Part shown: positions 3,048-32,722 of the stretch, piece by piece | Position numbering within the stretch: position 1 is the stretch's first letter | Layout: each line of letters opens with the position of its first letter | NCBI GenBank assembly: GCA_031763465.1 | Contig: JARFOE010000057.1 | Span: 3,956,178 to 3,988,899, forward strand | Length of the DNA stretch: 32,722 bases | DNA from: Squatina squatina | Lineage: Eukaryota | Direction: 5' to 3' | Notes under the pieces: generated by a model | Database searches by the model: none | What the model was told of the DNA's origin: nothing | Seen by the model: the letters and a program-made list of their open reading frames with translations, nothing else | Position numbers and translations under genes: made by a program

Positions 3048-3220
3048 ACACCACCAGGTCAAGACGTGAAAATGAAATTGACGGGCAGGATTATCACTTT
3101 GTAATTTCCCGAGAGCAGATGGAGAAAGACATTCAGGACAATAAGTTCATCGAAGCTGGCCAATATAATGACAATCTGTATGGGACCAGCATTCAATCTG
3201 TTAGAGCTGTAGCTGAAAGG
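3048..3220 (+). CDS. DLG3: DLG3 guanylate-kinase domain exon (173 nt), (H)[57 protein letters not shown]
   Basis: Acceptor cttgtAG (3046-3047) and donor GTGAGT (3221). [21 protein letters not shown] and [13 protein letters not shown] fit DLG3 better than DLG1/2/4. Confidence 0.93.
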
Positions 3221-3904
3221 GTGAGTACAGCTAAGGGTTACAAAAATAAAATTTCTATCTCGTTAAAGGGAAGGCTAACTGTTACTTTGAGGAATGATGC
3301 ATTACCTGCTGTCACAATGGGCTCTTTTACTCTTAAACTGAAGTTAAATCTACACATACAACAAGAAACTGCCCATCATCCATGAGGAAAACCACTTGGA
3401 ACACTCTCCATAAGGTGATCTCCTCTTTTGGGTTCAGATAAGCTCTAATCACAGTCGAAATACAGATTTACTCCGACACTGGATAATAAAACAAAACTTT
3501 GTGTGTTGAAGTTACAGCAAAGAATTGCTGCTAACAATGGGAGAGAAAAGAATTGCAGGTGAGTCTTAGAATAAGTCTGAATTTATATAACTGGAGACAA
3601 GATCAGCAGGACTTTAAAAGAGACCTTCCTGAAATGAATTGACCCAAGGAGATTCTCTTGGTGGATAATGGGCAGTATCTTACTGTATGAAGGACTGAAC
3701 CCATGAAAAATTGTCACTGAATAGGTAAACTACTCCCACTAAAAATACACTTCTTGAAGTCTCAAATGGCTCCAAGGGTAAATATGCTGCATACAGTACT
3801 ATGGTACTGAGTCTACTTGCCTGTTGGTCATCTTAAGTTTTCTAGGTTCACATGTATGCAGATCAAGAAAGTCCCAGGGTTCATCCCTTGTCTATAATGA
3901 GTTA

Positions 3905-4171
3905 GAAACATAGAAAATAGGAGCAGGAGTGGGCCATTCGGCCCTTCGAGCCTGCTCTGCTATTCAATATGATCACGGCTGATCATCCAAATTCACTACC
4001 CTGTTCCTGCTTTCTCCCTCTATCCCTTTAGCAATAAGAACTATATCTAACTCCTTCTTGAATATATTTAATGATTTGGCCTCAACTGCCTTCCGTGGTA
4101 GAGAATTCCACAGGTTCACCACTCTCTGGGTGAAGAAATTCCTCCTCATCTCAGTCCTAAATGGCTTACCC
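3905..4171 (-). mobile_element. CR1-like LINE 3' end, antisense, running into a gap
   Basis: agaaacatagaaaataggagcaggagt.ggccattcggcccttcgagcctgctc...agagaattccacaggttcaccactctctgggtgaagaaatt is the reverse complement of a shark-type CR1 tail. Confidence 0.8.
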
Positions 4172-4370: not shown

Positions 4371-4814
4371 TACTGTGTTCATCATCTGTAGTTTTGAACA
4401 TTACAAAGGAGAAATATCGAATTCAAAATGTTTGTTTTCATTCTAATCCATAATTCAAACCAGAAATGAGCAGTATGGAATAGAAAATGGCGGCAAGAAA
4501 TTCTCACATCAGTGTCTAAGACGCAAGTAAAATCTGGTTATTGCTGACTGGAATGACTGCTGGATTCATCAGAGATAACCTTGCTGAGGTTTGAACTTCT
4601 CGACGCAACATAACGGAGACATTTATTATAATGGCTTGCCTCCACTCCAAAACAGCTCAGACTGCTGTGAATGAGAGGCAAGGCCATTATAATAAATGTC
4701 TTCTTATTGTTATAAGAAGGTTTGACTGTTCCCCAACCGACTTTGTGGTTAAATCTCCCAGACAGTGCAACACAGAGCCATATTCTTCTGAAAAGTCCCT
4801 AGTTCAAACTGTGA

Positions 4815-5218: not shown

Positions 5219-5328
5219 GGAAAACACTGCATACTTGATGTGTCTGGGAATGCGATTAAGAGGTTACAGCTTGCACTACTTTATTCAGTTGCCATTTTCA
5301 TCAAACCCAGATCTGTGCAATCCCTCAT
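5219..5328 (+). CDS. DLG3: DLG3 guanylate-kinase domain exon (110 nt), GKHCILDVSGNAIKRLQLALLYSVAIFIKPRSVQSL(M)
   Basis: Acceptor ttcctgcAG (5217-5218), in frame with exon 3048-3220. GKHCILDVSGNAIKRLQ is a DLG-family hallmark. The donor at 5329 is a weak GTCAAA. Confidence 0.9.
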
Positions 5329-8300
5329 GTCAAATCATGTGAATGACAACTGCTTACTACAACCTGACAGATTTTGGAGACTGCTCAGCATATTTACTAG
5401 TAACATCAATGGAAATCAGTCTCCTCGAAGGTTCAGTGAATGTGCATTTTGTTTTGCTTTTTTTCCTCTTTGTATCATGGTTTTATGTCTAGTCAACACT
5501 TTTGAAAGAAGGAATATGCAAGGGCCTTTTCAAAACTTTGCACCAGTTTCCTTCATTCTAGCCACCCTGTGAAAAGTTTGAAGCGAACACTTAGACATTT
5601 TTCATTTGTACAGATTCTCCCAAAACAATTCAAGTACTTGTTGTGAAATTCTCAATAAGTCATTGACTTTCAGTGCAGATGGAATAATCTCTCTTTGTAG
5701 AATAGCATAAGATTTGTAGTGATAGCAAAGGCTTCCTCAACATAGTGGCACACTGTGTAATGCTGTTTATTTAGACTTTCAGAAAATTGCACATGAAAGC
5801 CTACTAGTTAAACTAAAAGCCAGGACAGAACATTGTGTCAGATAAAAATGCTGATTAGGTAACAAAGAATATTTGAGATTCATAATGTCAGACTGGGGTG
5901 AATTTTCAAGTCCAGCAGGGGTCAATGCTTGGATCCCTGGAATCAATGAACTGGATATTGACACTAACTATAATCTTGTCAGATTTGCAAGGAAAGAAAC
6001 AGAGACAGACTTTGGCTGAATATTTGCAAAATGATTCAAATCAAATTTAACATTTCTAAATGTGAAGTACCCCTTAGATGCAAGGCCTCTGAAAAATAGA
6101 CAGAATCAGTGAATGCAATACCCAAAACACTAAAAAAAAATCCTCTAATTCTATGTAGTGAAAGCAAAATTTAACTTATTGAATCACCAAAAACCAATGG
6201 GCCTAATTTATAAGCAGATAAAATTGTAGAATATGGTCCCCAAAACACCAGTGAAAATCTCAAACCTCCATGTGATAAACATGGACTTTGGCTCATTCGT
6301 CACTGGAAAACCATTGTCTTGCTCATAGATCAAAAATATACAATGAATACAGTTGAAGTAACACCAGGAAATTTTGAAAGGTATGTGAGAACAATAGTAG
6401 ATACAATACTTACAGCACAGAAACCATCTGGTAAAAGTNNNNNNNNNNNNNNNNNNNNNNNNNNNNNNNNNNNNNNNNNNNNNNNNNNNNNNNNNNNNNN
6501 NNNNNNNNNNNNNNNNNNNNNNNNNNNNNNNNNNNNNNTATACTTCTGTGATTACTCATAGCAGCGCTTTTAAAGACACACGTTGTATACAATTCCTCAT
6601 CTCAAGAGGAGAATGAAGAGAATGAAAATCAGAAAAGAATTTCAAATCATGATTGTGGTACTGTAGATGAAAATATAAAAGAATGATAATTTTCAACATA
6701 TTAAATTGCACATTGTTTTACACATCAAAACATGGTTGTCTGCATGGACATTTTAAATTTTTTTTTGCTGTTTTACAAAAAATTAAATGTGATTCCAGTA
6801 AGAACTGACAGGTGAATGGTAAACGAAGAATATGTAAATTGCTCAAATTGATGCTGTTCACGTGGCTTTGTACGAATGAAATGTTAGAAATGTATTTTTT
6901 GTCTTTGTCTAAAATGCCCTATCTCTCCCTTTTAGTGAAATCAATCAATCTCCTTTGAACTGGATTTAATTTAAATTTGTCGTGGTCAGGAAACCTTTCT
7001 ACATCACTACACAACTAAAAATACTTTTATGTAGAGAATCACAAATCCAATCTATCTATCTTGTCAATACGCAATGCGAGTCCTTCGTTCCTTTCATGTA
7101 TTTATATATAAACATATTGTTGCACAATACTTTCCCTTAATTAAGGAACCAAGGTAATAGCTGGAATTTCTGTTTTGAAGTTCCCCAAAATGAAAGTAAA
7201 ACAACCTAATCGAATGAGGAAGATGTATGTTGTAACCTTGAAATTCTGTGTTAGCAACTGAGCATGAGGGACTTGAATAGTTTGGCTTTCTTCAAAGGAA
7301 GTATTCATCATCTGTTTTTTGAACTGATATCTAAATTGGTCAGGATAGGTGCAAATCTTTGTAGTGACAATTTTTACTCTTTTACAAAGAGTTCTGGATA
7401 TTTTATTTGAGGTGAGTTACCAGGGGACAGAAAATGGGGGTTTATTTGTTGGTGGTAAAGACATGCCATTGATGTTTGAGATGCAGGATGTAATTTATGA
7501 AATGTACACAAAACTAATGAATATGGTGCATCTTTGGACATTAGTGATCATTGCTTTAAATAGATAGACAAGTATGAAAAGAGTTCAGAGAGCTCTTCAG
7601 CTGCCACAGTTCCTCTTGGAATAGGTTAGTCTGATCATCTTTGGGGCATAACTTCTATTACTGGATCTGTCACTGACCTTGGTTTTCAATGTAATCATAG
7701 TGATCACTGCTGCAGTCCATAAGATATCAATGTTGCATGTAAAATCAACAATNNNNNNNNNNNNNNNNNNNNNNNNNNCTGCAACTTTGATCAACAAGGA
7801 AGTTTATCCAGTAGATATTCCCCACAAGGTGACTGTGTCAACACATAAGTGCAGTTATCCCAGGCCTTTTATATGGACTACTGTATTATGTACAGCTATT
7901 ATTACCTATTACACTATACTGCAAAATGTTATTTTCTAATGGTAGTTGGAACAGTATAGCACAACAACAAAAGGGATAAGTAGATAGGAAACAGTGCTGA
8001 ATGGTTTGAGGGTTAGACAGGAAGCCTTTCCTGGCTTCCTTTTTATTTAGTCCAACTCTCATATAATAGTCTTAAAGATATTGATTCAGTGACCAATGTG
8101 TAGTAAATGATTCATGTCCCTATAGTTTTGGGCAGGAGGGGAGATCAAGTGCCTATGTTGTAAAGCTGAAGGCCATTCTGCATTGGATTCATTTCCCCTC
8201 TGTACTGCAGCACAGCAGTATCTTTCAAATGCTCCACTTTGTGGTTGGGTTTTGCTTCCTTCCAGATATGCAGATTACAGGAAATAGGCTTTATATTTCA

Positions 8301-11015
8301 GGCTGTGATTTTTCAATTAAGCATATTTTAACTCTCAGGGTTTCCAATGGAGTAACTTTGATAATTGGCCCAAGCACAGTAAATATTTCCACGAGTAGGA
8401 TGAGGCTTGTGTGCCTGTTCTTAACTAGGCCAAGTCACTTTATATAATAGCAATGAGGTCAGATTGGAATAATAACCTCCATTTCATGAGTGGGAGGGTT
8501 ATACGTACCCAAGATATTGCAGATGAACTCGACTCATAACCAATTTCCCTGTATTTTTTGCAGGATGAATATTTTACTTTCTTCCATCACAAAAACTAGT
8601 CTTTTATAAATTTCTCCCAAAGTAAACTGGCAACCAAGCCAGCAACATTGAAATGGATGAACATTTTGATCCATTTTCAATGGTTGCCTCCAGATTTCTA
8701 CACTCTTAGCCACAGTCATGCTTTCATAGTTCACATTTGCTGAATATTACTAAGTGATAATGGATTATTGGTTGGACAGAAATTAAAGTCGTAAAAGTAG
8801 TAAAATATTGAAGTATACTAAAGACCAATGTGGCAGATAACACATCCCAGTGAAGTCTCATACATTTTGTACAGAGAAGACAGTAAATTGACAAGGTTTG
8901 ATGGTGCAACATCCGGTTCTAGAAATAAGTCAGAAAAGGTCCTCAACTTATACTCTTCTGTGCAAAAGGTAATTCCACCCAATAGTAAAAATTAGCTATT
9001 TTGGTCTTCCCTTTACATTTTTTGTCTCTTTCTTCCCTGATGAACAGTTAGCTGTTGGACTTCCAATGATTCCTCCCAGTGATCCCAATAAATCTTTTTT
9101 TGTCTCTCTATTTTGGTATTTGCATTGATGAAAGTATTTATTTTCTGTTTTTATTTTTTAAATAACCATGGTTTGTTATTTATATGCCCCATTTTGTTTA
9201 AAATTTATTTTGCCACATCATTAAGCACATGTAAAAATTGCATTTTACCTGTTCTAAGTGTCATAAACCCACATTATTGTTTCTTTGCATGTGACAGGCC
9301 AACTGTGGAAGTTTCTCAGCTGACTTGTTTTTGTGCAAGATTTGATCTAAGTTCAGTGGCATTTACTTCTCCTGTACCCCGCCCGTCCTGCCTGTGTAGC
9401 CTGNNNNNNNNNNNGTAGCCTGGTCTGTTGGGTGATCTCCTAGGCCTAGGAATGACCCTGCGCTTAATGTGTTTGTTTGAAATTACTTTGTCCATTGTTT
9501 TAACAAAAGCATTAACCTGTTTATTTTAAAAGTAATATTGCAGTGTAATTTCTAAGCTAAAATGTGCTGTATATCTGCTGGCCTGCTCCAATTGACGAGG
9601 ATTATTTTCTTGTACATACAGTTATAAATGCATAAAAGAAGAAAATCAGCCTTCACCTACCAGTCCAGGAATGCACTTAAACACCCAGGGCAGAGAATAC
9701 TTTTTTTTAAAAGAACAAGGAAATTAAATAACCAGTAGAGTAGCAAAGTTTAAACTAAACTAAATGTTGGGGTAATGGGAGGGCTGCCAGTCTACTTCAG
9801 TTTATTCTACTTTGATCACCATTTGCAGCACATAGTGACAGATGGGAAGGAAATACAGTCTTTAAAGAGAGAATCTGTTTTTAGGCTGGAATTTCTAACC
9901 TTGACCAATCTTATTACATAGTGCTAAGGTATTCCAAAAAAATTAAAGGGTAAAGAGAATATTTTATAACTGAAGTCATGAGACATTTTTATGTGTACTG
10001 CACAGTAAAGTACAAGCTGTAGAGAATCTATTTTGGAAGGTTTGAGGCAGCTGGACGTATTCAAAAGTGGTATTTTAAAATGTTTTAACTGTGGTGCTTA
10101 CAGCACTGTTGCAAGGTATTTTTCTCTCTTGAGGAAATGTTAACATTTATTACTATTAGACCAAGACACACATTGGGATCACAGTATATTTGGCAAATGT
10201 CCAGAAAACTTACAATTTCCATAACCTGTAGCTTTCAAAAAAATTGCTGGAGATTCATCCCATTTCTGTCATCACTGCTCAATAATTGGCCATGCGGAGG
10301 TGCCGAAGAGGGTCTTTGATTATCTCACCCATGATTGCCCCTCTCTAACTGNNNNNNNNNNNNNNNNNNNNNNNNNNNNNNNNNNNNNNNNNNNNNNNNN
10401 NNNNNNNNNNNNNNNNNNNNNNNNNNNNNNNNNNNNNNNNNNNNNNNNNNNAATTGATTCAAAGGGCTAAATTCTGCACAGTCACAGCATCTATGAGCCA
10501 GATTTTTAATTGAGAGGGCGAGTTTGAAAAAATGTAATCAATGGAATTCTTAGCGGTGACATGCTTAAGAATATTGATGGTCTGATTTTTGAAATGTAGC
10601 CTACACAGAATGTCACTAAATAACACATCTTTGTTGCTCTGCTCTGTGTGCAGCAAATGATGTGGTTTAGGTTGTAAATGGTGTGGAAGACTGTACCAGG
10701 ATTGTTATGTCAATGGTGTTGAATTCTGTACCAGGATATTTCAGGTCTTACTAGGACCTCAGCTAACATGGGCATACAGTGAGCATGCAAATTCATTTAG
10801 TGCAGGCTATCATGCTATTAGGAATAACCGAGGAAATCTCATGCACTCATAAGTTTCATTCAATACTTTTTCATTATTGTGTGCAGACCACACCAAGTGT
10901 GCAGGGATCACCAAGGGCCTGAAAGTACAATGTACAATAAAATAGTAGTCACTCAAGGCAACTCAAGCAACAACCCACACCTTGGGCTGTCAAAGTAAGT
11001 GTGTAAAGAGACATC

Positions 11016-11393
11016 GTCTTCGGCCGCTTGAGGAAAAGAGTGTTTGAAGATAAGGACCTCAAACCCGGCACCAAGCTCATGGTCTACAGGGCAACAGTGA
11101 TACCCGCCCTCCAGTATGCATCAGAGACATGGACAATATACAGTAGAGACCTCAAAACACTGGAGAAGTACCACCAACGCTGCCTCCACAAAATCCTGTG
11201 ATTGCACTGGCAGGATAGGTGTACTAATGTCAGTGCCCTCTCTCAGGCCAACATTCCCAGCATCGAGGTATTGGTCATGCTCAACCAGCTGCGATGGGCG
11301 GGCCACATTGTCCGCATGCCCGACTCAAGACTCCCAAAGCAAGCACTCTATTCTGAGCTTTGGTACAGCAAGCGATTACCAGGAGGGCAGAGG
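11016..11393 (+). mobile_element. RTE-clade LINE fragment (post-RT C-terminal region) with an in-frame stop, running into a gap
   Basis: Translates FGRLRKRVFEDKDLKPGTKLMVYRATVIPALQYASETWT...HKIL*LHWQDR...QLRWAGHIVRMPDSRLPKQALYSEL...PGGQR. Confidence 0.88.
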
Positions 11394-14203: not shown

Positions 14204-15145
14204 CTGTCAAAACACAATCAAATATGTGTAACACGCAAGTTTTCATCTTCATGGTATTCCACACAGCATGTATAAGATAGTCATTCTATAGTTCCTTTAC
14301 TCCAAAAACCATGGTAAGATTGTCTACAGTTCTTTTTCTTCTCACCATTCCTATTAGTTGCACCTCAACGAATCCTTTAATCGAAAGCTTATTTTCATTT
14401 AAAGTAAATTAAATTTTGTCCTATTAAATTATTATCCTCTGTGTCTGTTGGGCTGCCCCAATGCAAGTATGCCCTGGATGAATTCTGTCAAATGTTTACT
14501 GGACACAGTTAAGGCTAAGGAGTATGATTATCTCTGTATACTCAGATCAAAACACAAGAACAAGGATATACCCAATAAAAACAAGGTGGAGCAATCAGAT
14601 GATAGAGCTTCCTCCCCATCTATTGTTAGGCACAGCCAAAATCCTAGATGGCTGAAACTAAGTAGGATAGCATGAATCAACAGTNNNNNNNNNNNNNNNN
14701 NNNNNNNNNNNNNNNNNNNNNNNNNNNNNNNNNNNNNNNNNNNNNNNNNNNNNNNNNNNNNNNNNNNNNNNNNNNNNNNNNNNNACTATTGTTACCCACT
14801 GTCGTTCTGGCTAATGATCCTTTGGAAAACATACACACAATACCTGATACAAGAAAGATACAATGTACACACAGCCACCTGAGTCTTGGTGAAGCATAAT
14901 ATCAGATGCTCAAGCAAAGGTTCCAATTAACTCATAGATCTGGGAGAATTCACTAATATAGTCCAGACAAAGACTTGAAGATTAGTGTGCTATACAACTT
15001 CACTCTGCAAAGGGACATTACCATGGAGCAGGCTGAAGAGGGAATCAGATTGAAGAGGAGAAGCATGCTGTCCACGATAGCATACATCTCAGTCAGAGGG
15101 TCATGCAGCACTGCACAGTTGCAGATAGTGGGTTCCTCCAGAGAG

Positions 15146-15362
15146 CATAAGAAATAGGAGGAGTAGGCCATACAGCCCATCGTGCTTGCTCCGCCATTCA
15201 ATAAGATCATGGCTGAACATCTGTCTCAACTCCACTTTCCCACCTTATCCCAATATCCCTTGATTCCATTAGTGTCCAAAAATCTATTGATCTCAGTCTT
15301 GAACATACTCATCAACTAAGCATCCACAGCCCTCTGGTGTCGAGAATTACAAAGATTCATCA
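15146..15362 (-). mobile_element. CR1-like LINE 3' end, antisense
   Basis: cataagaaatagga..gagtaggccat..agcccatcg.gc.tgctccgccattcaataagatcatggctga...catccacagccctctgg, same family as 3905-4171. Confidence 0.8.
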
Positions 15363-18247: not shown

Positions 18248-18322
18248 CAACGATAACTCTGTTTCTCTCACATAGATGCTGCCTGACCTGCTGAGTGTTT
18301 GCAGCATTTTCTGTTTTTGTTT
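18248..18322 (+). mobile_element. Penelope-like element terminal-repeat remnant
   Basis: aacg.taactctgtttctctc...agatgctgcctgacctgctgagt.ttt.cagcattttctgttttt, nearly the same as 19686-19758. Confidence 0.55.
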
Positions 18323-19628: not shown

Positions 19629-19758
19629 AATAAAGACATAAAATGCTGGAAATACTCAGTAGGTCAGACAGCATCTAGACCTGAGACGTGAACTCTGTTT
19701 CTCTCTCTACGGATGCTGCCTGACCTGCTGAGTATTTCCAGCATTCTCTGTTTTTATT
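19629..19758. mobile_element. Palindromic Penelope-derived repeat with ~48-bp inverted arms
   Basis: aataaagacataaaatgctggaaatactcagtaggtcagacagcatct (19629-19676) pairs with ggatgctgcctgacctgctgagtatttccagcattctctgtttttatt (19711-19758). Confidence 0.7.
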
Positions 19759-20137: not shown

Positions 20138-20223
20138 CTCAGCCAGAAAGCGCTTTCTTCATATTTCTTCTGCTGATAGGTTTCTACTCCGAAATTGTAG
20201 CACAGCAGGGACAAGTAACCTGT
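20138..20223 (-). CDS. TEX11: TEX11 SPO22/ZIP4-region exon (86 nt), TGYLSLLCYNFGVETYQQKKYEESAFWL(S)
   Basis: Acceptor tttgttttAG and donor AG|GTAAGG. LCYNFGVET...KYEESxFWLS is diagnostic of TEX11. Confidence 0.92.
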
Positions 20224-21420: not shown

Positions 21421-21795
21421 TAGGGCAAAGGTTTGGCTTTGGAGCAGTCAACTAAATTTGTACTGAGCAACAGGCAACAATAAGAGACTAAGGAAACTGG
21501 GAATATTATAATCCAGAAAAAGTAGCTTAGTGAGTCTGTGTCGAACTTTTATACCTGTATTATTTTTATTGCTGGACATAGCATGACAGGTTAAAATTCA
21601 AGATCACACAGGGTATTTCTCAGAAGGCAGAGCTAACGCAGCACAGACGGGCTATAGTCCGGGACCCTTCTCATCCGTTCAATTCAGCATCTACCAATGA
21701 TCATTTGAATAATCTATCCTAATCTTTTCTGCAACATAGCAGAATACTGTATTAAACAGTTTAAAGGAAACACTGCAAATTTTTCATGTACTCAC

Positions 21796-22000
21796 GTGTT
21801 TTTGCACCTGCTGCACTGGTATGTGTACTTGTAATTTATTTCATATGTGTGACAGCGTGTAACCAATGGTAACTCAGGGTGGATCAGTATGGATTTCTGT
21901 GCATACAACTTCCAAAACGGTCCGTGTCCATCGCGAACATTATTAATAAGCCAGGTAGCAGCATGGCACAATTCGTGAATCAATGTGTCCCGTAGACGCT
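21796..22000 (-). CDS. GCNA: GCNA/ACRC SprT metalloprotease active-site exon (205 nt), (E)RLRDTLIHELCHAATWLINNVRDGHGPFWKLYAQKS...VTRCHTYEINYKYTYQCSRCKN(T)
   Basis: Acceptor tgctttgcAG and donor GTGAGT. Contains HEXXH (HELCH), GHGPFW and the first CxxC of the zinc-binding region. Phase-compatible with exon 23913-24051. Confidence 0.93.
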
Positions 22001-22324
22001 CTGCAAAGCAACACAGAAATCAGTATTTCAGATAAGGTTAGGCAGATCAGACTTAACATATATCCAGCTTTCACTAATTCTCTTGGGTTTAAACAGCTCT
22101 AAAGTTTATAGCCTTGAATACATTTAGTCAAGGGGAAAACTGATCTGGCTACAAATTTGTGTGCAGTAAGTTTACTTTCGATATGGTTAAGCTTCAAGTT
22201 GTGCTAATATTGTATATTCCACTTTAACTTTTTAGTGTAACAAAGAATTAGTTCAACTTTATAAGATAAATGGCTTACCCTTTCTGAAGTTGGCAACTCA
22301 CTACAATATTGTTCCACGGGCAAA

Positions 22325-22620
22325 CACCCTCCAAGAGCTCACATAAGGTGACTACTCTTAAGTGGGCCTGTATATTCACCACAAAGGGCCATCACAATGA
22401 AGTCCAATCAGGACTTGACCTAAAATCTGTGCACACATTTCCAAGCAGGAATCACTAGTCAGTGATCTGGAACAGGAAATGTGGCTAATTACTCCCCACA
22501 ACCCCATTGCATCCAGAATCCAGATCATGTCAAGACACCAGGATAAACGTGGGTGGGACCTTCTTGTGTACAGTTCAGTGCTACATCATGTGTACATGTA
22601 CTCCAGTGAGCCATTTGGAG
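22325..22620 (-). mobile_element. Degenerate tRNA-headed SINE, antisense, in a GCNA intron
   Basis: The reverse complement begins aatggctcactgg...gtagcactgaactgtaca...gaaggtccc, and its body resembles 4815-5095. Confidence 0.45.
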
Positions 22621-23912
22621 CTAAAAGATAAAGCTGTTTAGTTTAACCTGGCGTAGCAATTTATCCAATCTAGCCAGCCAGTCATCATCCTCCAGATCAG
22701 CTAGAAATTGAAGGCTTCGGACAACTGGTCTATCACCTCTGCCTGGGAAGCAGGAGTCCTTTTAAGACTATTCCATTACATTTGAGATCTTTCAGGTCAT
22801 ATTTCCCAAAAATCAGCCAATAAAAAAAAAAGTGTTCAGCCTAACAAGCTGCATCTAAAATGATTCTTCACCATATCTACAATCTATGAGCTGGTCAGTT
22901 CACACATGCACTCGGTCTTCTTTCTCTCCACCCCGCCCCATTCCACAAAAGGCACCATTCTCACCTGCCTAACTACTAGAAAAAGATGAACAAATTTGTT
23001 CCCAGGCTTCTGCTAATTTGTAACCAGTCCCTAAAAGACGCAGGAGCAGCAAGGTTTCCATTTGCCTCAGACTTTTTCTTCTTCCCTGAGGCAAAGCACC
23101 CAATCCCTGCTCAGCACTGTTCCTGGATAACTCAGCTGAAACTGAAACACGACAGGTGGAAATATCAGACACAGCTCACACAAACTGCAGTGCCACCTTA
23201 TCATGATACTCATTCTTAATTAGCAATTTCATAGCCTCACCAGCAAGGAAATGTGCCTGCTCACAACACTGAGGCGCACCTTGCAGCCTGGGTTCCAGTT
23301 ACTTTTCCTTTATCAAAATCATTTGCATTAAAAGTAACATGAAGAATGTGTAATCGGGCAGGATACTAGAGTGCTGTCATGGCCCATCAAACCATACTGC
23401 AACAAGGAGTTAGAGTCAATGCCAGAGGGGAGAAAAATGGAGGAATAAAAAGAAAATGCACGACAAATGTACAAATTACATGCACACTTAATGTCAGCAA
23501 TGAACAAAAATGAACCAAACATGTGGAAGTCAGAAAAGACGACAAATTGTATCTTCCAAGATCATCAGCATCTGTGCAACTTATTCGCTCCATATATATT
23601 AAGGATTTATCCATACGGTCACTGATATTTAAGCCAATCTGGATCTGGATTAATGCATTAAATAGGCTTTTTTGTTAAGTATTCAAAGGGTTTAAGGGAC
23701 TCAAAGAAAAGGAGCAATTCCTCAGAGACTGATTTGCCATCTTAATCAGCATTCTGCTGGAGTGTTATCATCTTTCCTTCCAATTTGAGAATTTATATTC
23801 AGTGTCAATCAAAATAGTGAGCCTGATACTGACCAGTAGGCCTTGCATGGCATGAAAATGAACATGAATTGAAGGCATATTTATCAAGTTAAATTTTGTG
23901 TTTTGTTCTCAC

Positions 23913-24051
23913 CAGCTGAATCACACACTTTCTCGGATAGTTCAATTCTGGCATAGCGTTGGAGAACACCATCCCGTTTCTGTCCAGTAATACAATATCC
24001 GGCTGTTTTCCGCATTTTCTTATTCCATGTAATCTCCAACTTCTCTGGAAG
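23913..24051 (-). CDS. GCNA: GCNA SprT exon (139 nt), LPEKLEITWNKKMRKTAGYCITGQKRDGVLQRYARIELSEKVCDSA
   Basis: Acceptor gatttacAG and donor GTGAGA. WNKKMRKTAGYC and ARIELSEKVCDSA are GCNA signatures. Confidence 0.93.
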
Positions 24052-24131
24052 CTGTAAATCATACAACAGAAAGCCAATCACACTCAGTCCTGCAGGATTT
24101 CATTTGGCCACAAAGATTAATAAGATTTTAC

Positions 24132-24267
24132 CTTCTGCTGAAAGACACTCTTATTGTATAAATTATAGAGTTCTTGAGTTAACTCCTCCCGATTCAGTTT
24201 GAAATTTTTTACATACTTTGATGAACTCAGAGTCAGGTCCTGAAGAAAACAGCCAGGCGTTTGGCAT
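24132..24267 (-). CDS. GCNA: GCNA exon (136 nt), CQTPGCFLQDLTLSSSKYVKNFKLNREELTQELYNLYNKSVFQQK
   Basis: Acceptor tttttcatcAG, donor AAG|GTAAAA, 80-nt intron to the next exon in phase 0. Contains the CxxPGCFL and LYNxSVF motifs that precede SprT. Confidence 0.9.
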
Positions 24268-24896
24268 CTGATGAAAAAGGTAAAAAGGAAATTCTTAAGT
24301 TTGAGTGCGCTTCCCTTCACTCAGGAATTCCTGAACAGATTTGAGGTGTGAAACAAGGAGTATTTGCTGAGCCCCAGTCGGGAGAGAAGTTAAAATTACC
24401 CACTACACTTCCTTCAGGGAAACCTTTTAGCAAGAAGTGGGAGTTATGCTAGCTTGCTTTATTGTGGGGCCTTTCACTGTCTGATGTGCAGCTGTGCCAT
24501 CCGAGACTGCAGCACAACAATAACCCTTGTGGCCTCCTGGACTGCAGACAGAAAGCCAAGATGTGGGAGGCCTGACCTGAATATATCCAAGTAGAGTGTA
24601 CGTCTGACCACTCCAGCGGTGATGAGAGATAAAATGCACTCCCCCACAAACTGCTTATTAAAATGTACAATGGCTCCATAAAATACTAGTGCAGCTCATG
24701 TAACACTGCTTATAGGGAATCTGAGGATATTGTCTTTTAAAAAGGGAGTGAATATGTTATGGCACAGAATATAGTAGTTTTGATTGTCAGAGCAAGTTAT
24801 TTGGTTTGTAACTATTTGAGAGGTTGGAAGTAATTAAGTGGGTTGGAAAACTGAACATTAAGAAAACAGACCTTCAAAAAAAAAAAGAGGGTAAAA

Positions 24897-24900
<4 letters not shown>

Positions 24901-24935
<35 letters not shown>

Positions 24936-24948
24936 ACACACACACACA
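24901..24948. repeat. Compound (GA)n(CA)n microsatellite
   Basis: About 17 GA units followed by about 7 CA units. Confidence 0.95.
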
Positions 24949-25260
24949 GAGAAAAATAAACAGTAAAGGGCTACCAAAAATAGTGCACGAAAAAGGGGAA
25001 AAATACAGCACAACCAGGACAAGAAATGATAGCAACCCATTAGTGCTATTTAAAAAAAGAGCTGTCAAAAAAAAGCATAGAAAGAAACTGGGGTGGGGGA
25101 GATGCTCAGGGAGCAAAGCAGGAAAGAGCAGGTCAGATCTTGCCAGGAATAAAACAAGAGNNNNNNNNNNNNNNNNNNNNNNNNNNNNNNNNNNNNNNNN
25201 NNNNNNNNNNNNNNNNNNNNNNNNNNNNNNNNNNNNNNNNNNNNNNNNNNNNNNNNNNNN

Positions 25261-25645
25261 TGGGGCGATCGGCCGCCACACATCGGCTGACAATAACATT
25301 GGCCGATGTTTTAAGATGGTGGCCGCCGGCACAGGACACGCGCCTTTAAGAGCCCTTGGCAATGACAAGGGAAACCTGCTGTTGCCATGCCAGTGTCGTC
25401 ACGGGGACGGCCGCCTCCAAATCCGGAGGTGCGCCCCTGCAGTGCACAGGGGTTTGGCGTGTGATTGTATGACGTTGCGTCTCTGACACCAGCGCCAATT
25501 GCGTCCCCATTGGCAGGGCCTATATGCCGCCAGATTGCCAGGTTCAAGGCAGCATTTTGTTGATTTTTGGCTCTATGCTGATTTCGCGCCCAGGTAGAGT
25601 CGCTAATTGGCGCCACCCGGGCGTGAAACCACACCAATTGGGGCC
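25261..25645. mobile_element. GC/CpG-rich end of a non-autonomous DNA transposon, abutting a CR1 fragment
   Basis: Sharp CpG enrichment relative to the flanks, ending ...cacaccaattggggccc. The other end is lost in gap 25161-25260. Confidence 0.5.
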
Positions 25646-25647
25646 CT

Positions 25648-25875
25648 CCTCTCTTTCCAGCACTGTAACATTCTCCTTAACCAATACTACCATCCCAACT
25701 GCTTTCCTTCCCTGTGTTTCTTGAAAACCTTACATCCAGGAATATTTAAATCCCAATCCTGCCCTTTTTGAGCCAGGTCTCAGTTATCATATTCCCTTGT
25801 GCCTATTTGCACCTGCAGCTCACCAACCTTATTTACCACACATCCTGCATTCACACACACGCACTGTAAACCTAA
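25648..25875 (-). mobile_element. CR1 ORF2 AP-endonuclease N-terminal fragment, degenerate
   Basis: The minus strand reads VNAGCVVNKVGELQVQI, then after frameshifts ITETWLK, GQDWDLNIPGCKVFKK, GMVVLVKENV. Confidence 0.75.
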
Positions 25876-26793
25876 ACCAAACTCACATCAAAAATATGAA
25901 CACTTGTTTGGAAAAATTGAAATTGTACTAGATTCTGGTTAACAGAATCGATTTGGTTCTTAAAATAGACTAAAATACTGATGACTTCCTGAATGGATAG
26001 GAGATGGATGTAATTAGTACCTGCTGTTGGATCAAACATTTGCCTTCTCTTTAAAAGTCAGTGAGATGCTATTGGTGAAGAATAACCTCTTCGAAACAGA
26101 TTTTTATGTTAATGTCACAAGGTCCCCAGCAAGTATACAAGGAAATTTTATTATAGGGGAGTGTTTTCATTGAAATGTACTTGNNNNNNNNNNNNNNNNN
26201 NNNNNNNNNNNNNNNNNNNNNNNNNNNNNNNNNNNNNNNNNNNNNNNNNNNNNNNNNNNNNNNNNNNNNNNNNNNNNNNNNNNGAAACTACTCATCACCT
26301 GACTATCAGAAGTTGGCTCTAACTTCTGCTGACAAGAAAGATAAACTGATCAAGCTCTTGCTCACCAGTGCCAATTGTTGAACCAGGGCCAGTCCTCTAA
26401 ACACTCTCTCCTCCCCCCACTTGCCTCATTCTTTAAAATCATAATATATTACTCAGCTCCTGTGCCACTGTACACAGAATCAAGACAAAGTGTAAATGGA
26501 AGTAGGGTTAAAGCCAGGGATAAGTGGACCAGAGTATGCAGACATAATTCATTGCGTTTAAAGTCAGGCATTCGGTCTTTATTTTCATAATATAAATTCC
26601 TATATCCANNNNNNNNNNACGGTTATAACTGCCCACGTAAACCTGCCAGTGGAGTTGCTAACAGAAAGTGTGCGCAGGTGTTAAGATTTTGAATACGTTA
26701 GATTATATAGGCACCTCTACATAAACATACTGTGTGTATTAAGTGTTACAGTGAAGCAAAAAAAGCAGCATTGAGCTACAATCTGATGCTTAC

Positions 26794-27088
26794 AAATCTC
26801 AAAATTGTCATCACTACTGGAGTCCAAGATGGCTATGGTTCCACCGCAGTTCTGTGGCTTCTCGTCCACTTTCTCTATCACTACACATTCATCATGTCCT
26901 TCTTGCTTGCTCTCTGGAGTAATTTTTGGCCATGATTCAGCCTCGTCTTCTGAACTAGACAGTAACAGCTTGCACACACATGAATCACAGGTTTTTGGGC
27001 TCTCCTCAGATTCGGAGTGTAGATTCATTGTTGCGTCTTGACAATGATTCTTCAAGGGCTGCCTGGATTTTTCAATTGTTTGTTGAAG
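26794..27088 (-). CDS. GCNA: Probable GCNA N-terminal acidic/disordered exon (295 nt), LQQTIEKSRQPLKNHC...SSSEDEAES...ILDSSSDDNFEI
   Basis: Acceptor ctatttttcAG, donor GTAAGC, open frame rich in S/D/E, with SIM-like VVIE and IAILD motifs. Lies upstream of the SprT exons on the same strand. Confidence 0.72.
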
Positions 27089-28185
27089 CTGAAAAATAGC
27101 AAAAGAATGCAGAGCTAGTTAAATACTTGGAATGGCATGGAACTAAAATAATGAGATGTCAAATACTACAGTGCATAAGTACTGGAAATNNNNNNNNNNN
27201 NNNNNNNNNNNNNNNNNNNNNNNNNNNNNNNNNNNNNNNNNNNNNNNNNNNNNNNNNNNNNNNNNNNNNNNNNNNNNNNNNNNNNNNNNAACATAAGACA
27301 CAAGTAGAGGCATCCAGCTGCTTTATAATTGTACACAGAGATACATTAGATTCTCATTCACATGTATTTACAGCTTCATACTTTAAACAGCCCGAAATCC
27401 AGACAATGCAAACATTGGAGATCTGTACCAATGAAATATCAATTAGATATATGTTAAAATAGCTGACAAAAAAAGGAAATGAAAAAAATTAAAAACCAAA
27501 ATAAATCAAAGCATACTAGAGTTAATGATGATTAAAAATATCCATCTCAGATATTGTAGAATTACCATCATACTCAATGAAATTAGATTCTACCAGAACA
27601 TGCTCACCCGCCTTTGTTGCCACCTCTCCCAGCTCCAGTACAAACCTCATCACCATCCGCTGCTTATTTTTAGTTACTTGTTAAATAAAAATCATTATTT
27701 TATTAATCCATTGAACATCATGAGCCACACATTATCCCTTTCCCCAGTAAGGTGCATGGGACTTTATCAGTTGCAAATGATCTGATATACAAAACCAACC
27801 ACTTGCGCTTTGTTCGATATCACTCCACAGAAGTTTTGCATGAGTGGGCAGAAGAGGGAGTGTCTAATGTAAATATTTACAATCATCATACTGGCTGCTC
27901 CCAGCAAACCAAATGTTACGTCAAGTTGAAGCGATGAGGGGTGAAGTTGAAGTGATTCTTGACGCAGACCTGAGAATAATAAACTCTGAAAGCAGTTCTG
28001 TTATACATTTGAGCAGGTAGATTGTTTGAATGACAGCAAAAGATAATCTTCCAAAAACACCCCACTAAACTTTTGCACCAGTAAAAAGCATATGTAAAAG
28101 GTGTCACCACTAAATATTATCTGTGGTTGGAAACTGCAGAAAGTTGCTAAGTCTACATAATATTAATAACTGATGAGATACTTAC

Positions 28186-28228
28186 CTGGGGGCAAAAGGA
28201 AGAATCCTCAGCCCTTCACAAAATTATC
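28186..28228 (-). other. Possible 43-nt exon (5' UTR of GCNA?)
   Basis: Acceptor atttttgtAG and perfect donor CAG|GTAAGT on the - strand; no homology evidence. Confidence 0.3.
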
Positions 28229-29251
28229 CTACAAAAATCAAATGAATCCATTCAGTGAGGAAGAAGAGCAACCATTCTCCAGACTAACTGGTTTTAATTT
28301 TTCCAACCTGTTCCTGCACTGGGCCAGTCTCCAAAACTTCATTCCAGACCTCAGCGACAGTTGTAGCAGTGCTACTCTGTACAATTATTACAACTGCATG
28401 GTCANNNNNNNNNNNNNNNNNNNNNNNNNNNNNNNNNNNNNNNNNNNNNNNNNNNNNNNNNNNNNNNNNNNNNNNNNNNNNNNNNNNNNNNNNNNNNNNN
28501 NNNNNNNNNNNNNNNNNNNNNNNNNNNNNNNNNNTGGTTATGTTCATCCTTCTGCATCACTTGAAGAAATCGAGCAAACAGCATTAATGATGTATACAGG
28601 ACATTTGTCACACTTCCCTTTCATGTGGATAACAGTTTCCAACACAAGCACAATGACTTTGCATTTAAAAGGCCTAACAAGGCAGAGAGCACAAAGACTG
28701 ACAAGAAAGGGAGCCCCTCTGGTTTATAAAAATAATTTGACAGGGACACATAAAAACATAATGACAACTCTTTAAATAGTTAGTGTAAGGCCTTAATGAA
28801 CTCATCCACCGATCAGGCCTTCAGACATTCAAAAGGAAGCCTCTGCCATTTGTGGAGCGATGAGATGGTAATATAAGATTTTTAACTTCTAATTACTAGT
28901 GAGACATTCTGGCTAAATATCATTACAAATGTTTTCATATTCATCCTGTATAAAGAATACCGTTACTCAATTTAAATCAGAGGTTGTGTTACTGCATATG
29001 GTGCACTCGATACCATCCTGTTTCAGCTTGGTTTAACTCTTACCATCAATAAACGATCGATTCTTTCAATAAAAGGGCTCTAATCTTTGAAGAGTCACTC
29101 TGGGCAGGTATGAAATTGTGTTATTGCCAGAATTTATGGCTTGTCTTAAAANNNNNNNNNNNNNNNNNNNNNNNNNNNNNNNNNNNNNNNNNNNNNNNNN
29201 NNNNNNNNNNNNNNNNNNNNNNNNNNNNNNNNNNNNNNNNNNNNNNNNNNN

Positions 29252-29414
29252 ACATGACACCGAACAATGCAGAAGAGCTGAAGGTCGCTATTGAAGCATC
29301 CTGGTCTTCCATAACACCTCAGCAGTGCCATAGGCTGATAGCTTCCATGCCACGCCGCATTGAGGCAGTAATTGCTGCAAAAGGGGCCCAAACCAAGTAC
29401 CGAGTACATATATA
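29252..29414 (+). mobile_element. 3' end of an older, different Tc1 element (transposase C-terminus) that hosts the nested insertion; probably continues at ~31038-31080
   Basis: PNNAEELKVAIEASWSSITPQQCHRLIASMPRRIEAVIAAKGAQTKY, followed by CGA (29401-29403) where the stop is expected. Confidence 0.88.
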
Positions 29415-29630
29415 CAGTGGTGTGAAAAACTATTTGCCCCCTTCCTGATTTCTTATTCTTTTGCATGTTTGTCACACTTAAATGTTTCTGCTCATCAAAA
29501 ACCGTTAACTATTAGTCAAAGATAACATAATTGAACACAAAATGCAGTTTTTAAATGAAGGTTTACGTTATTAAGGGAGAAAAAAAAACTCCAAATCTAC
29601 ATGGCCCTGTGTGAAAAAGTGATTGCCCCC
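29415..29630 (+). repeat. Left terminal inverted repeat (~215 bp) with outer and inner direct repeats
   Basis: Outer DR cagtggtgtgaaaaactatttgccccc; inner DR ccctgtgtgaaaaagtgattgccccc (29605-29630). Confidence 0.93.
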
Positions 29631-29794
29631 CTTGTTAAAAAATAACTTAACTGTGGTTTATCACACCTGAGTTCAATTTCTGTAGTCACCCCCAGGCCTG
29701 ATTACTGCCACACCTCTTTCAATCAAGAAATCACTTAAATAGGAGCTACCTGACACAGAGAAGTAGACCAAAAGCACCTCAAAAGCTAGACATC

Positions 29795-30817
29795 ATGCCA
29801 AGATCCAAAGAAATTCAGGAACAAATGAGAACAAAAGTAATTGAGATCTATCAGTATGGTAAAGGTTATAAAGCCATTTCTAAAGCTTTGGGACTCCAGC
29901 GAACCACAGTGAGAGCCATTATCCACAAATGGCAAAAACATGGAACAGTGGTGAACCTTCCCAGGAGTGGCCGGCCGACCAAAATTACCCCAAGAGCGCA
30001 GAGACAACTCATCCGAGAGGCCACAAAAGACCCCAGGACAACATCTAAAGAACTGCAGGCCTCACTTGCCTCAATTAAGGTCAGTGTTCACGACTCCACC
30101 ATAAGAAAGAGACTGGGCAAAAACGGCCTGCATGGCAGATTTCCAAGGCGCAAACCACTTTTAAGCAAAAAGAACATTAAGGCTCGTCTCAATTTTGCTA
30201 AAAAACATCTCAATGATTGCCAAGACTTTTGGGAAAATACCTTGTGGACCGACGAGACAAAAGTTGAACTTTTTGGAAGGTGCGTGTCCCGTTACATCTG
30301 GCGTAAAAGTAACACAGCATTTCAGAAAAAGAACATCATACCAACAGTAAAATATGGTGGTGGTAGTGTGATGGTCTGGGGTTGTTTTGCTGCTTCAGGA
30401 CCTGGAAGGCTTGCTGTGATAGATGGAACCATGAATTCTACTGTCTACCAAAAAATCCTGAAGGAGAATGTCCGGCCATCTGTTCGTCAACTCAAGCTGA
30501 AGCGATCTTGGGTGCTGCAGCAGGACAATGACCCAAAACACACCAGCAAATCCACCTCTGAATGGCTGAAGAAAAACAAAATGAAGACTTTGGAGTGGCC
30601 TAGTCAAAGTCCTGACCTGAATCCTATTGAGATGTTGTGGCATGACCTTAAAAAGGCGGTTCATGCTAGAAAACCCTCAAATAAAGCTGAATTACAACAA
30701 TTCTGCAAAGATGAGTGGGCCAAAATTCCTCCAGAGCGCTGTAAAAGACTCGTTGCAAGTTATCGCAAACGCTTGATTGCAGTTATTGCTGCTAAGGGTG
30801 GCCCAACCAGTTATTAG
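29795..30817 (+). CDS. Tc1 DD34E transposase, 340 aa, uninterrupted
   Basis: Paired-like HTH with GRPTK linker, RRKPLL, WTDETK, QQDNDPKH and WPSQSPDLNPIE (34 residues between second D and E), ending KGGPTSY*. Confidence 0.97.
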   Translation: MPRSKEIQEQMRTKVIEIYQYGKGYKAISKALGLQRTTVRAIIHKWQKHGTVVNLPRSGRPTKITPRAQRQLIREATKDPRTTSKELQASLASIKVSVHDSTIRKRLGKNGLHGRFPRRKPLLSKKNIKARLNFAKKHLNDCQDFWENTLWTDETKVELFGRCVSRYIWRKSNTAFQKKNIIPTVKYGGGSVMVWGCFAASGPGRLAVIDGTMNSTVYQKILKENVRPSVRQLKLKRSWVLQQDNDPKHTSKSTSEWLKKNKMKTLEWPSQSPDLNPIEMLWHDLKKAVHARKPSNKAELQQFCKDEWAKIPPERCKRLVASYRKRLIAVIAAKGGPTSY

Positions 30818-30822
30818 GTTCA

Positions 30823-31035
30823 GGGGGCAATTACTTTTTCACACAGGGCCATGTAGGTTTGGATTTTTTTTCTCCCTAAATAATAAAACCCCTCATTTAA
30901 AAACTGCATTTTGTGTTTACTTGTGTTATCTTTGACTAATAGTTAAATGTGTTCGATGATCAGAAACATTTTGCGTGACAAACATGCAAAAGAATAAGAA
31001 GTCAGGAAGGGGGCAAATAGTTTTTCACACCACTG
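30823..31035 (-). repeat. Right terminal inverted repeat (~213 bp), containing AATAAA at 30882-30887 on + as a likely transposase polyA signal
   Basis: Reverse complement of the left TIR, with the terminal 34 bp identical and scattered internal mismatches. Confidence 0.93.
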
Positions 31036-31679
31036 TATACTTATACTTTTCAGAGGTCTGATATGTTCTATATACAATTGCCAAAAGTTTATAGAAACAG
31101 AATTCTTTTTCTGTGACTGTTGTACTGGGAGCAAACAACAGAATAGTGGTAAAATTCCATAATAACCTACTTTTTGCCATGACTTCATTATTCTTCAGAT
31201 ACAAGTAAATCAAATATGGTCAGTGAAATTAGTTTGGCACATACTATTCCATATCTGTGCCCAACGTGACAGCAATATCCTCATACTCTTGTCTGGTCTT
31301 TGCTATCAGTTCTGGACATCCCCAACACATCAGCTGTGAGGCAGCAACACGGGATGCCAATGTTTCCCCTGTAACAAGGAACGCAATACATTTAACATAC
31401 AGAATCACAAATGGAAACAATTGCTTTTACATACCATACATGAATCCATACCCATCATATAGCATAAACCAAGATACGACTCCGTTACACGTGAATTTTT
31501 TTTTTTAGGCGCTTCTTTTAAATTCATATTTACATTCATAATGGATAGAGTATATCTGTTGCGGATTTATTGTGTGCACATATATAACACACTAGTTCAT
31601 CTCCTGTTGCACATAGGGAGCCAAGACCAAGCGCATATTTGGGTTAAACAGGCTTAAAATGCTTGGTTAACTGGCCCCA

Positions 31680-31880
31680 GAGTGGAGGAGGAGGGAGGAG
31701 GAGAGAAGCAGATTAGCATGGCACGTGCAAGAGGAGGATGGGGAGAGGGAAGAGAAGATGAAGACACTAAGTGTGCAAGGAGTGGGAGGGGGTTGAGGCT
31801 AGCTTTTGTTTTCAGTGGAGGGATGGACTGCAAGGCCCATTTCTCTTGTCCATGGTGGGGAGAGGGAGGAGGAGGGGAAG
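31680..31880 (+). repeat. Purine-rich (GGA/GGGA) low-complexity tract
   Basis: gtggaggaggagggaggaggagagaag ... ggggagagggaggaggaggggaag. Confidence 0.6.
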
Positions 31881-32722
31881 ATATTGATTAGATTATTGTT
31901 CAGATAGTAATGAATAGACAGGTGCAATCAGGTAGTTAAGCCATTATGCCGCTCGGTTCAGTTCAGTTCCCAAAGTTTGCAGGCAGCTACTTATAAGCTT
32001 TTTAAAAAGAATTTAGGCTTGATCTGGGTTAAGGGACAATGCGAAAAGTATTTTAAAAGATGCTCTCACCTGAATATTCAAATAACACATACTTTGCTAT
32101 GATCAGTTAGAGGCATATTTATGGTCAATGTTTTCACTAACAATGGACTGACAGGCTGGAATTTTAATATTTGTTTTTTTAGCTAGCCTTTGGATTTGAG
32201 CTGGAGAACTATTGTTGAAGTAATTAGTTTTAAATCTGTCATCTTTTCAAATTAGTTACTTATTGCAGCTGGCCAGATGGGGAAGGCAAAGTACAATTTG
32301 GCTGTCAATGCAATGTTAGTTGAGCCCCACTGTACTTAAAATGGATAACAGTATAACACTCTGCCACCTGCAAGCACAATACCAATGGAATGTTACAATC
32401 ATCACCCACCACTCCTTTTTTTAGTAATAGATATACATAAGCACATAATTGGTGTATGTTACACACACCCACAGTACACATTATTATTTAAAACCATGTG
32501 CATAGCTAGGCAGAATCTGGATTTTCTATTGTACAGAATCCTTACTCAAAATTCACGCAGAAAAATATTTTAAAAAGGAGTAAAGCAGCGAACACAATTA
32601 CCTTCCACTGAACCCACCAACTTAGTTAATACTGCTTTGTCCAACATCACTACCAGTATACATTCAATGGAACAGATAAACTCAGTAACTATAAACCAGT
32701 CAGCCTAACGTCAATGATCCAG

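Follow-up and report, generated by a model that had tools for sequence, protein, structure and literature searches.

An intact Frog Prince-related Tc1 transposon nested in an older Tc1 copy on a shark GCNA scaffold: horizontal transfer or foreign DNA

Described Tc1 elements of vertebrates

Sleeping Beauty (SB) is the mechanistic reference for vertebrate Tc1 elements with IR/DR ends. In the portions available of two accounts, its transposase binds the inner and then the outer DR, the ends form a synapsis, and the DDE domain excises the element for insertion at a TA within an AT palindrome (PMC7827188, PMC3016246). Frog Prince of Rana pipiens, a second IR/DR Tc1, was reconstructed. Other DD34E elements have natural open frames: as far as the excerpted sources go, Passport is native and active (PMC2651795), ZB is native and active with 19 intact copies (PMC7913693), and Thm3 occurs in 3–5 copies that are untranscribed and fixed in place (PMC4683633). 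The part of a genome survey at hand counts intact copies in 105 genomes for ZB, 183 for ZB-like, 26 for SB, and 36 for SB-like elements (PMC9777934).

Aquatic vertebrates provide well-documented cases of Tc1 transfer in the sections consulted of two studies (PMC7070016, PMC3516227). The published cases (Kuraku 2012; Zhang 2020; Jia 2022) concern Tc1 elements that are near-identical between distant aquatic vertebrates and draw on many copies and synonymous divergence. For cartilaginous fish, the available text of Kuraku 2012 states that its family was not amplified (PMC3516227), that of Jia 2022 names one chondrichthyan for ZB-like elements, and the intact ZB-like family there amounts to at least 100 full copies within a single chondrichthyan (PMC9777934). 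Tc1/mariner is given an average of 0.14% of shark genomes in the extract of a further source (PMC12361510). No publication on the subfamily described below was found for sharks in the literature searched, which lay mostly outside subscription journals.

The window, meaning the whole 32,722-bp stretch of DNA that was analysed, holds a single copy of an intact Tc1 element. It shares with SB the PAI/RED plus DDE layout, ~220-bp IR/DR ends, a TA duplication, and an AT-palindromic target, but is distant from it in sequence (the best representatives of other families reach 48–54%), and the SB half-DR was not detected here. It resembles Frog Prince as an IR/DR Tc1 with 340 aa and a TA target, whereas Frog Prince is a reconstruction and the window copy is natural and known from sequence alone. 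With Passport, ZB, and Thm3 it has in common a natural open DD34E frame; those elements belong to other subfamilies and their activity is assay-proven, whereas the present one is read from its sequence. Identity with Thm3 is ruled out by a different length and start.

An earlier note on this DNA had called naturally intact copies uncommon and had proposed the element as a gene-transfer tool. The first view is not supported, given the native Passport and ZB, the surveyed genomes with intact copies, and the full-length relatives in databases. The case for a tool is ordinary, as native active Tc1 elements and intact copies are already published; with active vertebrate Tc1 elements known and intact relatives present in frog and fish assemblies, tool value is small. 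The part of the finding that deserves attention is the shark context, next to GCNA, a germ-line genome-protection gene.

The intact element and its family

The element proper occupies 29415–31035 (1621 bp), and the span of 29413–31037 given earlier holds for the element with both copies of the duplicated target TA (29413–29414 and 31036–31037). The left TIR (29415–29630, + strand, 216 bp) carries an outer DR at ~29415–29445 and an inner DR at ~29603–29630. The right TIR (30823–31035, − strand, 213 bp) carries its inner DR at ~30823–30850 and its outer DR at ~31005–31035. Both TIRs of ~215 bp with inner and outer DRs had been recognized in the earlier note, and so had the 34 identical terminal bp, which the TIR alignment reproduces. 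Overall, 196 of 211 aligned bases are identical between the TIRs, with 7 gap columns (self-BLAST E 5e-80). All four DRs have one 8-bp core in common; the two outer copies are identical, while the inner pair is one base apart. Of 68 columns in the DR zones 1 carries a mismatch, and of 150 spacer columns 21 do (Fisher p = 0.003), and this sparing of the DR zones fits a family-level asymmetry rather than decay. A scan with the 8-bp core, allowing up to one mismatch, found no half-DR within the left TIR.

Between left TIR and open frame lies a leader of 164 nt (29631–29794, + strand) without an upstream ATG. A TATA-like heptamer at 29735 may act as a putative promoter. The leader is collinear with read-through extensions of relatives, and read-through peptides of the right TIR match as well; one leader codon of the window copy differs from all five Nothobranchius read-throughs. 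The transposase ORF (29795–30817, + strand) encodes 340 aa with HTH_SB (residues 1–52), HTH_Tnp_Tc3_2 (69–140), and DDE_3 (149–300), all above the Pfam cut-off. Its catalytic triad is formed by D153, D244, and E279, the second D and the E being 34 residues apart, in agreement with the intact DD34E frame seen before. The catalytic half, residues 113–340, aligns gap-free to SB100X (E 1e-85). The predicted structure of the transposase has a mean pLDDT of 47 and is usable for residues 11–40 only. The exact transposase sequence is absent from the protein collection searched. The polyA signal ascribed to the right TIR is present as AATAAA at 30882 (+ strand), and a second AATAAA at 30680 lies within the ORF. 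The flanking sequence likewise confirms the TA duplication in an ATA-TA-TAC context; equally AT-palindromic TA sites, scored against the usual target motif, number 17 of 1853 in 1–29151. The element is therefore a DD34E/Tc1 of the IR/DR subgroup with a TA target-site duplication. Rfam gave no matches in the window.

Relatives at E 1e-30 or better number 4472, of which the best 120 were listed. Among these listed matches, the closest is a 229-aa copy from Cirrhinus (226/229, 99%), bichir copies are 96–97% identical, and medaka and killifish copies are 94% identical. The Xenopus tropicalis copy is identical at 326 of 340 residues (96%); this protein (P0003) is misnamed N-acetylgalactosaminidase in its source. 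Full-length relatives of the same subfamily, 339–343 aa long, exist in databases. Placed in a tree with 34 hand-picked rows of the best 120, the window protein sits on an end branch of 0.003 inside a clade with 100/99 support, together with Cirrhinus mrigala, X. tropicalis, Polypterus/Erpetoichthys, Nothobranchius, Oryzias melastigma, and Denticeps. The short branch bears out the claim of youth and marks the element as very young. The hosts in this clade range over bichirs, a cyprinid, killifish, medaka, Denticeps, and Xenopus, so the family has demonstrably jumped between hosts. The window copy is joined to this unnamed subfamily by 94–99% protein identity and the single 100/99 clade, and is set apart from it by Y21 and by its shark host scaffold.

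The element had been described as Frog Prince/Txr-like, which stands as far as a related IR/DR Tc1 goes. It is not Frog Prince itself: P0020, a protein that we take to be of the Frog Prince type, is 87% identical (44 differences) and falls in a separate 100/99 clade, on which ground identity with Frog Prince proper is rejected. With P0020 so labelled, the tree places the element in a sister subfamily of the Frog Prince-like elements. We presume the subfamily to be the Txr family of Xenopus. No Txr consensus was found, and a literature search that combined Txr with Frog Prince gave nothing. The supplements of PMC9777934, PMC7731502, and PMC7325037 held no sequence match. At the DNA level, the plasmids searched contained no relatives, and the genome contigs searched, a set free of eukaryotic genome DNA, gave 63 protein-pattern matches with none confirmed and no match to the DR pattern.

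Residue 21 and expected activity

Residue 21 is Y, encoded by TAT. Among 105 relatives that cover the position, S occurs in 84 and Y in none, and Y21 is the sole residue unique to the window copy in comparison with the same relatives. The suggestion that Y replaces the family S as a copy-specific change is thus well founded. The position comes directly after helix 1 (model helix 9–20, with pLDDT 84–89 across 11–40). The DNA-contact residues of SB are 28–47 according to the part of the source consulted (PMC7827188), and by analogy residue 21 would lie outside them. Distant Tc1 representatives, of which 100 out of 150 cover the position, have mostly A (59), followed by S (12), K (7), and Q (4); 16 residue types occur, including single instances of bulky F, H, M, and R, while the following G22 is kept in 91 of the 100. 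Y21 appears in one other protein (1 of the 100 covering representatives), a decayed, deleted copy of the sister subfamily. No publication on an S21 mutant was found in the literature searched.

All cis and trans parts of the element are shown, along with the TA duplication, the nesting within another Tc1, an AT-rich target, and the shark identity of neighbouring exons. If the analogy to SB holds, the paired-like N-terminal domain would bind the four DRs and pair the two ends, the DDE domain would excise the element and join its ends to TA, and repair would then duplicate the TA. By such cut-and-paste, the element would have been inserted at an AT-rich TA within an older Tc1 copy. Transcription, excision, integration, and a working protein are inferred, and so are the transfer and the shark origin of the element's contig, discussed below.

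The transposase would on balance be expected to be active in vitro. An intact-looking copy that is dead or silent, through S21Y or host silencing and whatever its provenance, is a possibility that we rate below even. The tyrosine is foreign to all 105 close relatives, and the one other Y21 sits in the deleted, decayed copy mentioned above; yet the residue follows helix 1 outside the SB contact set of 28–47, the position is loose across distant Tc1 families, and no residue besides Y21 is unique to the window copy. Thm3 offers a precedent of a low-copy, open-frame Tc1 that is, in the available part of its report, untranscribed at fixed sites (PMC4683633). That no half-DR turned up with one mismatch allowed to the 8-bp core also speaks for a defective copy, but the SB half-DR is described in the pages at hand as an enhancer and not as essential (PMC7827188). 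Current mobility of the element in its host is doubtful.

The shark scaffold, the nest, and its provenance

Four exons of GCNA, a SprT-like protease, are mapped at 21795–27091 (− strand). The SprT exon (21795–22001, − strand) has sharks and rays as all of its best 12 matches (93–100%), and bony vertebrates reach 77–86%. A fast-evolving GCNA exon (26792–27091) agrees with Pristiophorus at 86 of 100 residues and with Heptranchias at 77 of 100, and had no match in the four bony-vertebrate proteins tried. Judged by these similarities, the scaffold is shark DNA, probably from a squalomorph. The first coding exon and the C-terminal exons of GCNA were not found in the window, and about 300 residues (~139–437) are missing from it. 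Between GCNA and the element, 28184–28226 (− strand) may hold a non-coding exon of 43 nt whose splice signals look good by eye; it could be a GCNA 5′ UTR exon.

The scaffold in the window consists of 19 contigs of 617–3921 bp (median 1132 bp) separated by 18 gaps, each at least 100 N long; these many gaps and the absent GCNA residues indicate a fragmented draft. One gap of 100 N (29152–29251) opens the contig that bears both Tc1 elements (29252–32722), and 161 bp separate its end from the left TA. Between the element and the end of the closest GCNA exon mapped are 2.3 kb and three gaps. In an overall view, the earlier reading was right about a complete, young element with Y21, and missed the nesting, the nearby N gap, and the shark host, and with them the choice between transfer and contamination.

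The element interrupts the 3′ end of another Tc1. To its left, 29252–29412 (+ strand) contains the last 49 transposase codons of this outer Tc1, with the stop lost and the left side cut by the N gap; to its right, the outer Tc1 continues in register at 31038–31077 (+ strand), its similarity fading at ~31064–31077. With the similarity ending there, the remainder of the outer Tc1's right end is lacking. When the element and one TA are removed, the flanks rejoin the outer Tc1 in register with the read-through tails of relatives. The tail from Naja scores 26.8 against the right flank, above a shuffle maximum of 19.9 in 60, and the other 5 of 6 tails are not clearly above their own shuffles. Because the outer Tc1 rejoins in register minus one TA, a genuine insertion with TA duplication took place at a single locus of some genome. 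The outer fragment carries two rare residues in addition to the lost stop. An imperfect hairpin (31066–31096, with 15-bp arms at 80%) lies exactly where the outer similarity stops, and may mark either the end of a natural deletion or a joint in a chimera.

The outer fragment is 47% identical to the inner transposase over 47 residues, and full-length relatives of the outer Tc1 are 29–34% identical to the inner protein, which places the outer Tc1, at the sequence level, outside the inner element's family. Among its named matches, Staurois comes first (96%), followed by Leptobrachium (94%), Naja (90%), and cyprinids (83%), a distribution by which the outer family also appears to be a wide horizontal traveller. 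Among the matches listed, the outer family shows lizard-level spread and reaches ~81–82% in two deep-sea eel-like fishes. A search with 240 Tc1 proteins found no further Tc1 remnant in 1–29151.

The reading we prefer, at about an even chance, is that a young IR/DR Tc1 entered the shark lineage by horizontal transfer and then landed inside the older Tc1. At the protein level, the transposase is 96–99% identical to its X. tropicalis and Cirrhinus relatives vs. 72–77% for three conserved GCNA exons (124/162, 77%, to X. tropicalis; 116/162, 72%, to Labeo). Similarity above that of host genes is the yardstick of Zhang 2020, and the excess here, given at the protein level only, agrees with transfer. 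The lineages compared are separated by more than 400 million years. This comparison makes vertical descent implausible, and we regard inheritance or domestication of a shark transposase gene as very improbable: an open frame does lie beside the germ-line gene GCNA, but its identity exceeds that of conserved host exons, the TIRs and DRs are intact, as is the TA duplication, and the tree departs from host phylogeny. Domestication is rejected on the same intact ends and duplication and on the tree not following hosts. Compared with the published transfers, which have many copies and synonymous divergence, the present case has one copy and protein-level data. To exclude contamination, Zhang 2020 asks, in the part of the text available, for five or more copies per clade (PMC7070016), and one copy in the window falls short of this rule. 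A transfer also needs two Tc1 families in one shark, one landing inside the other, in a group where Tc1/mariner averages 0.14%. The intact ZB-like family of one chondrichthyan is a precedent for it.

The nested pair may instead be a frog or freshwater-fish locus, brought in as a contaminant contig or through a chimeric joint at ~31065–31080, and the element would then be an ordinary intact copy from a known amphibian/fish family; this we consider a serious prospect that stays somewhat short of even. Anurans are the sole named group at 94% or above for both families (X. tropicalis at 96% for the inner; Staurois at 96% and Leptobrachium at 94% for the outer), but the inner and outer matches point to different frogs, a cyprinid copy stands nearest to the inner element while cyprinid copies of the outer family are only 83% alike, and both families are promiscuous. 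Nesting would be far likelier in a Tc1-rich genome. Neither family has a named shark among its listed matches: counted by eye, no chondrichthyan occurs among ~80 named in the best 120 matches of the inner element or among ~63 named in 120 listed matches of the outer Tc1. This absence is weak evidence, since many top matches are nameless, 40 of the inner and 57 of the outer rows, and gene sets usually mask transposons. The contig opens at a gap, the outer similarity halts abruptly at the hairpin, and the draft is very fragmented, with its 18 gaps and ~300 GCNA residues unaccounted for. Against a contaminant, low-level contamination is expected to give a consensus and not private changes with both junctions in register; the private Y21, the rare outer residues with the lost stop, and the in-register flanks mark an individual locus and not a collapsed consensus. 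A non-Tc1 flank of 1.6 kb would be hard to obtain from low-level contaminant reads, and a wholly foreign contig would have no obvious route into a DLG–TEX11–GCNA block. This flank has a CpG o/e of 0.25 vs. 0.26 in the shark part, a test that is blind because the element itself also scores within the shark range, and the right flank holds nothing diagnostically shark in composition, similarity, repeats, or open frames. That a young 1.6-kb repeat was read through in a draft with a median contig of 1132 bp would suggest a single-copy or collapsed element and would argue against a current burst.

If the locus is truly shark, as under the transfer favoured here, it documents that a Tc1 of cyprinid/frog type recently passed into sharks, a group poor in Tc1/mariner, and provides a low-copy, datable invasion for studying how the host first responds and by which route transfer occurs. 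A foreign locus would instead be a sign of contamination or chimerism in the draft and a warning against transfer claims from single copies. A fuller reading is unlikely as a whole, namely that two unrelated Tc1 families of the frog/freshwater-fish pool very recently invaded a squalomorph-type shark, leaving a copy that would be one amino acid from the ancestral subfamily sequence and still mobile just upstream of GCNA. Were it true, it would catch the entry into a transposon-poor, slowly evolving genome in the act, and the element would be a natural, unreconstructed relative of Frog Prince, its subfamily having passed through bichirs, teleosts, and frogs and lastly reached sharks.

Several further features occur on the scaffold. 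Exons of guanylate-kinase-domain type lie at 420–460, 3048–3220, and 5219–5330 (+ strand) and are presumably from a DLG-type gene, probably DLG3, of which no later exons were seen. A single exon at 20140–20220 (− strand) resembles SPO22/ZIP4 (TEX11-like) just below the cut-off (E 7.9e-6, 26 bits). The linkage group of DLG, TEX11-like, and GCNA is also seen in other vertebrates. LINE-like remnants at 2800–2990, 3900–4170, 5700–6100, 11007–11393, 15140–15360, and 32630–32722 look, to us, CR1-like and RTE-like; the LINE-like pieces tried gave no Pfam match, including the last 31 codons of the right flank, which look CR1-like. A degenerate purine-rich array of ~28-bp units with many internal matches extends over 830–2500. 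Palindromic MITE-like repeats are found at 4617–4701, 18255–18321, and 19629–19758, the latter two being related to each other, and we take them to resemble common shark repeats.
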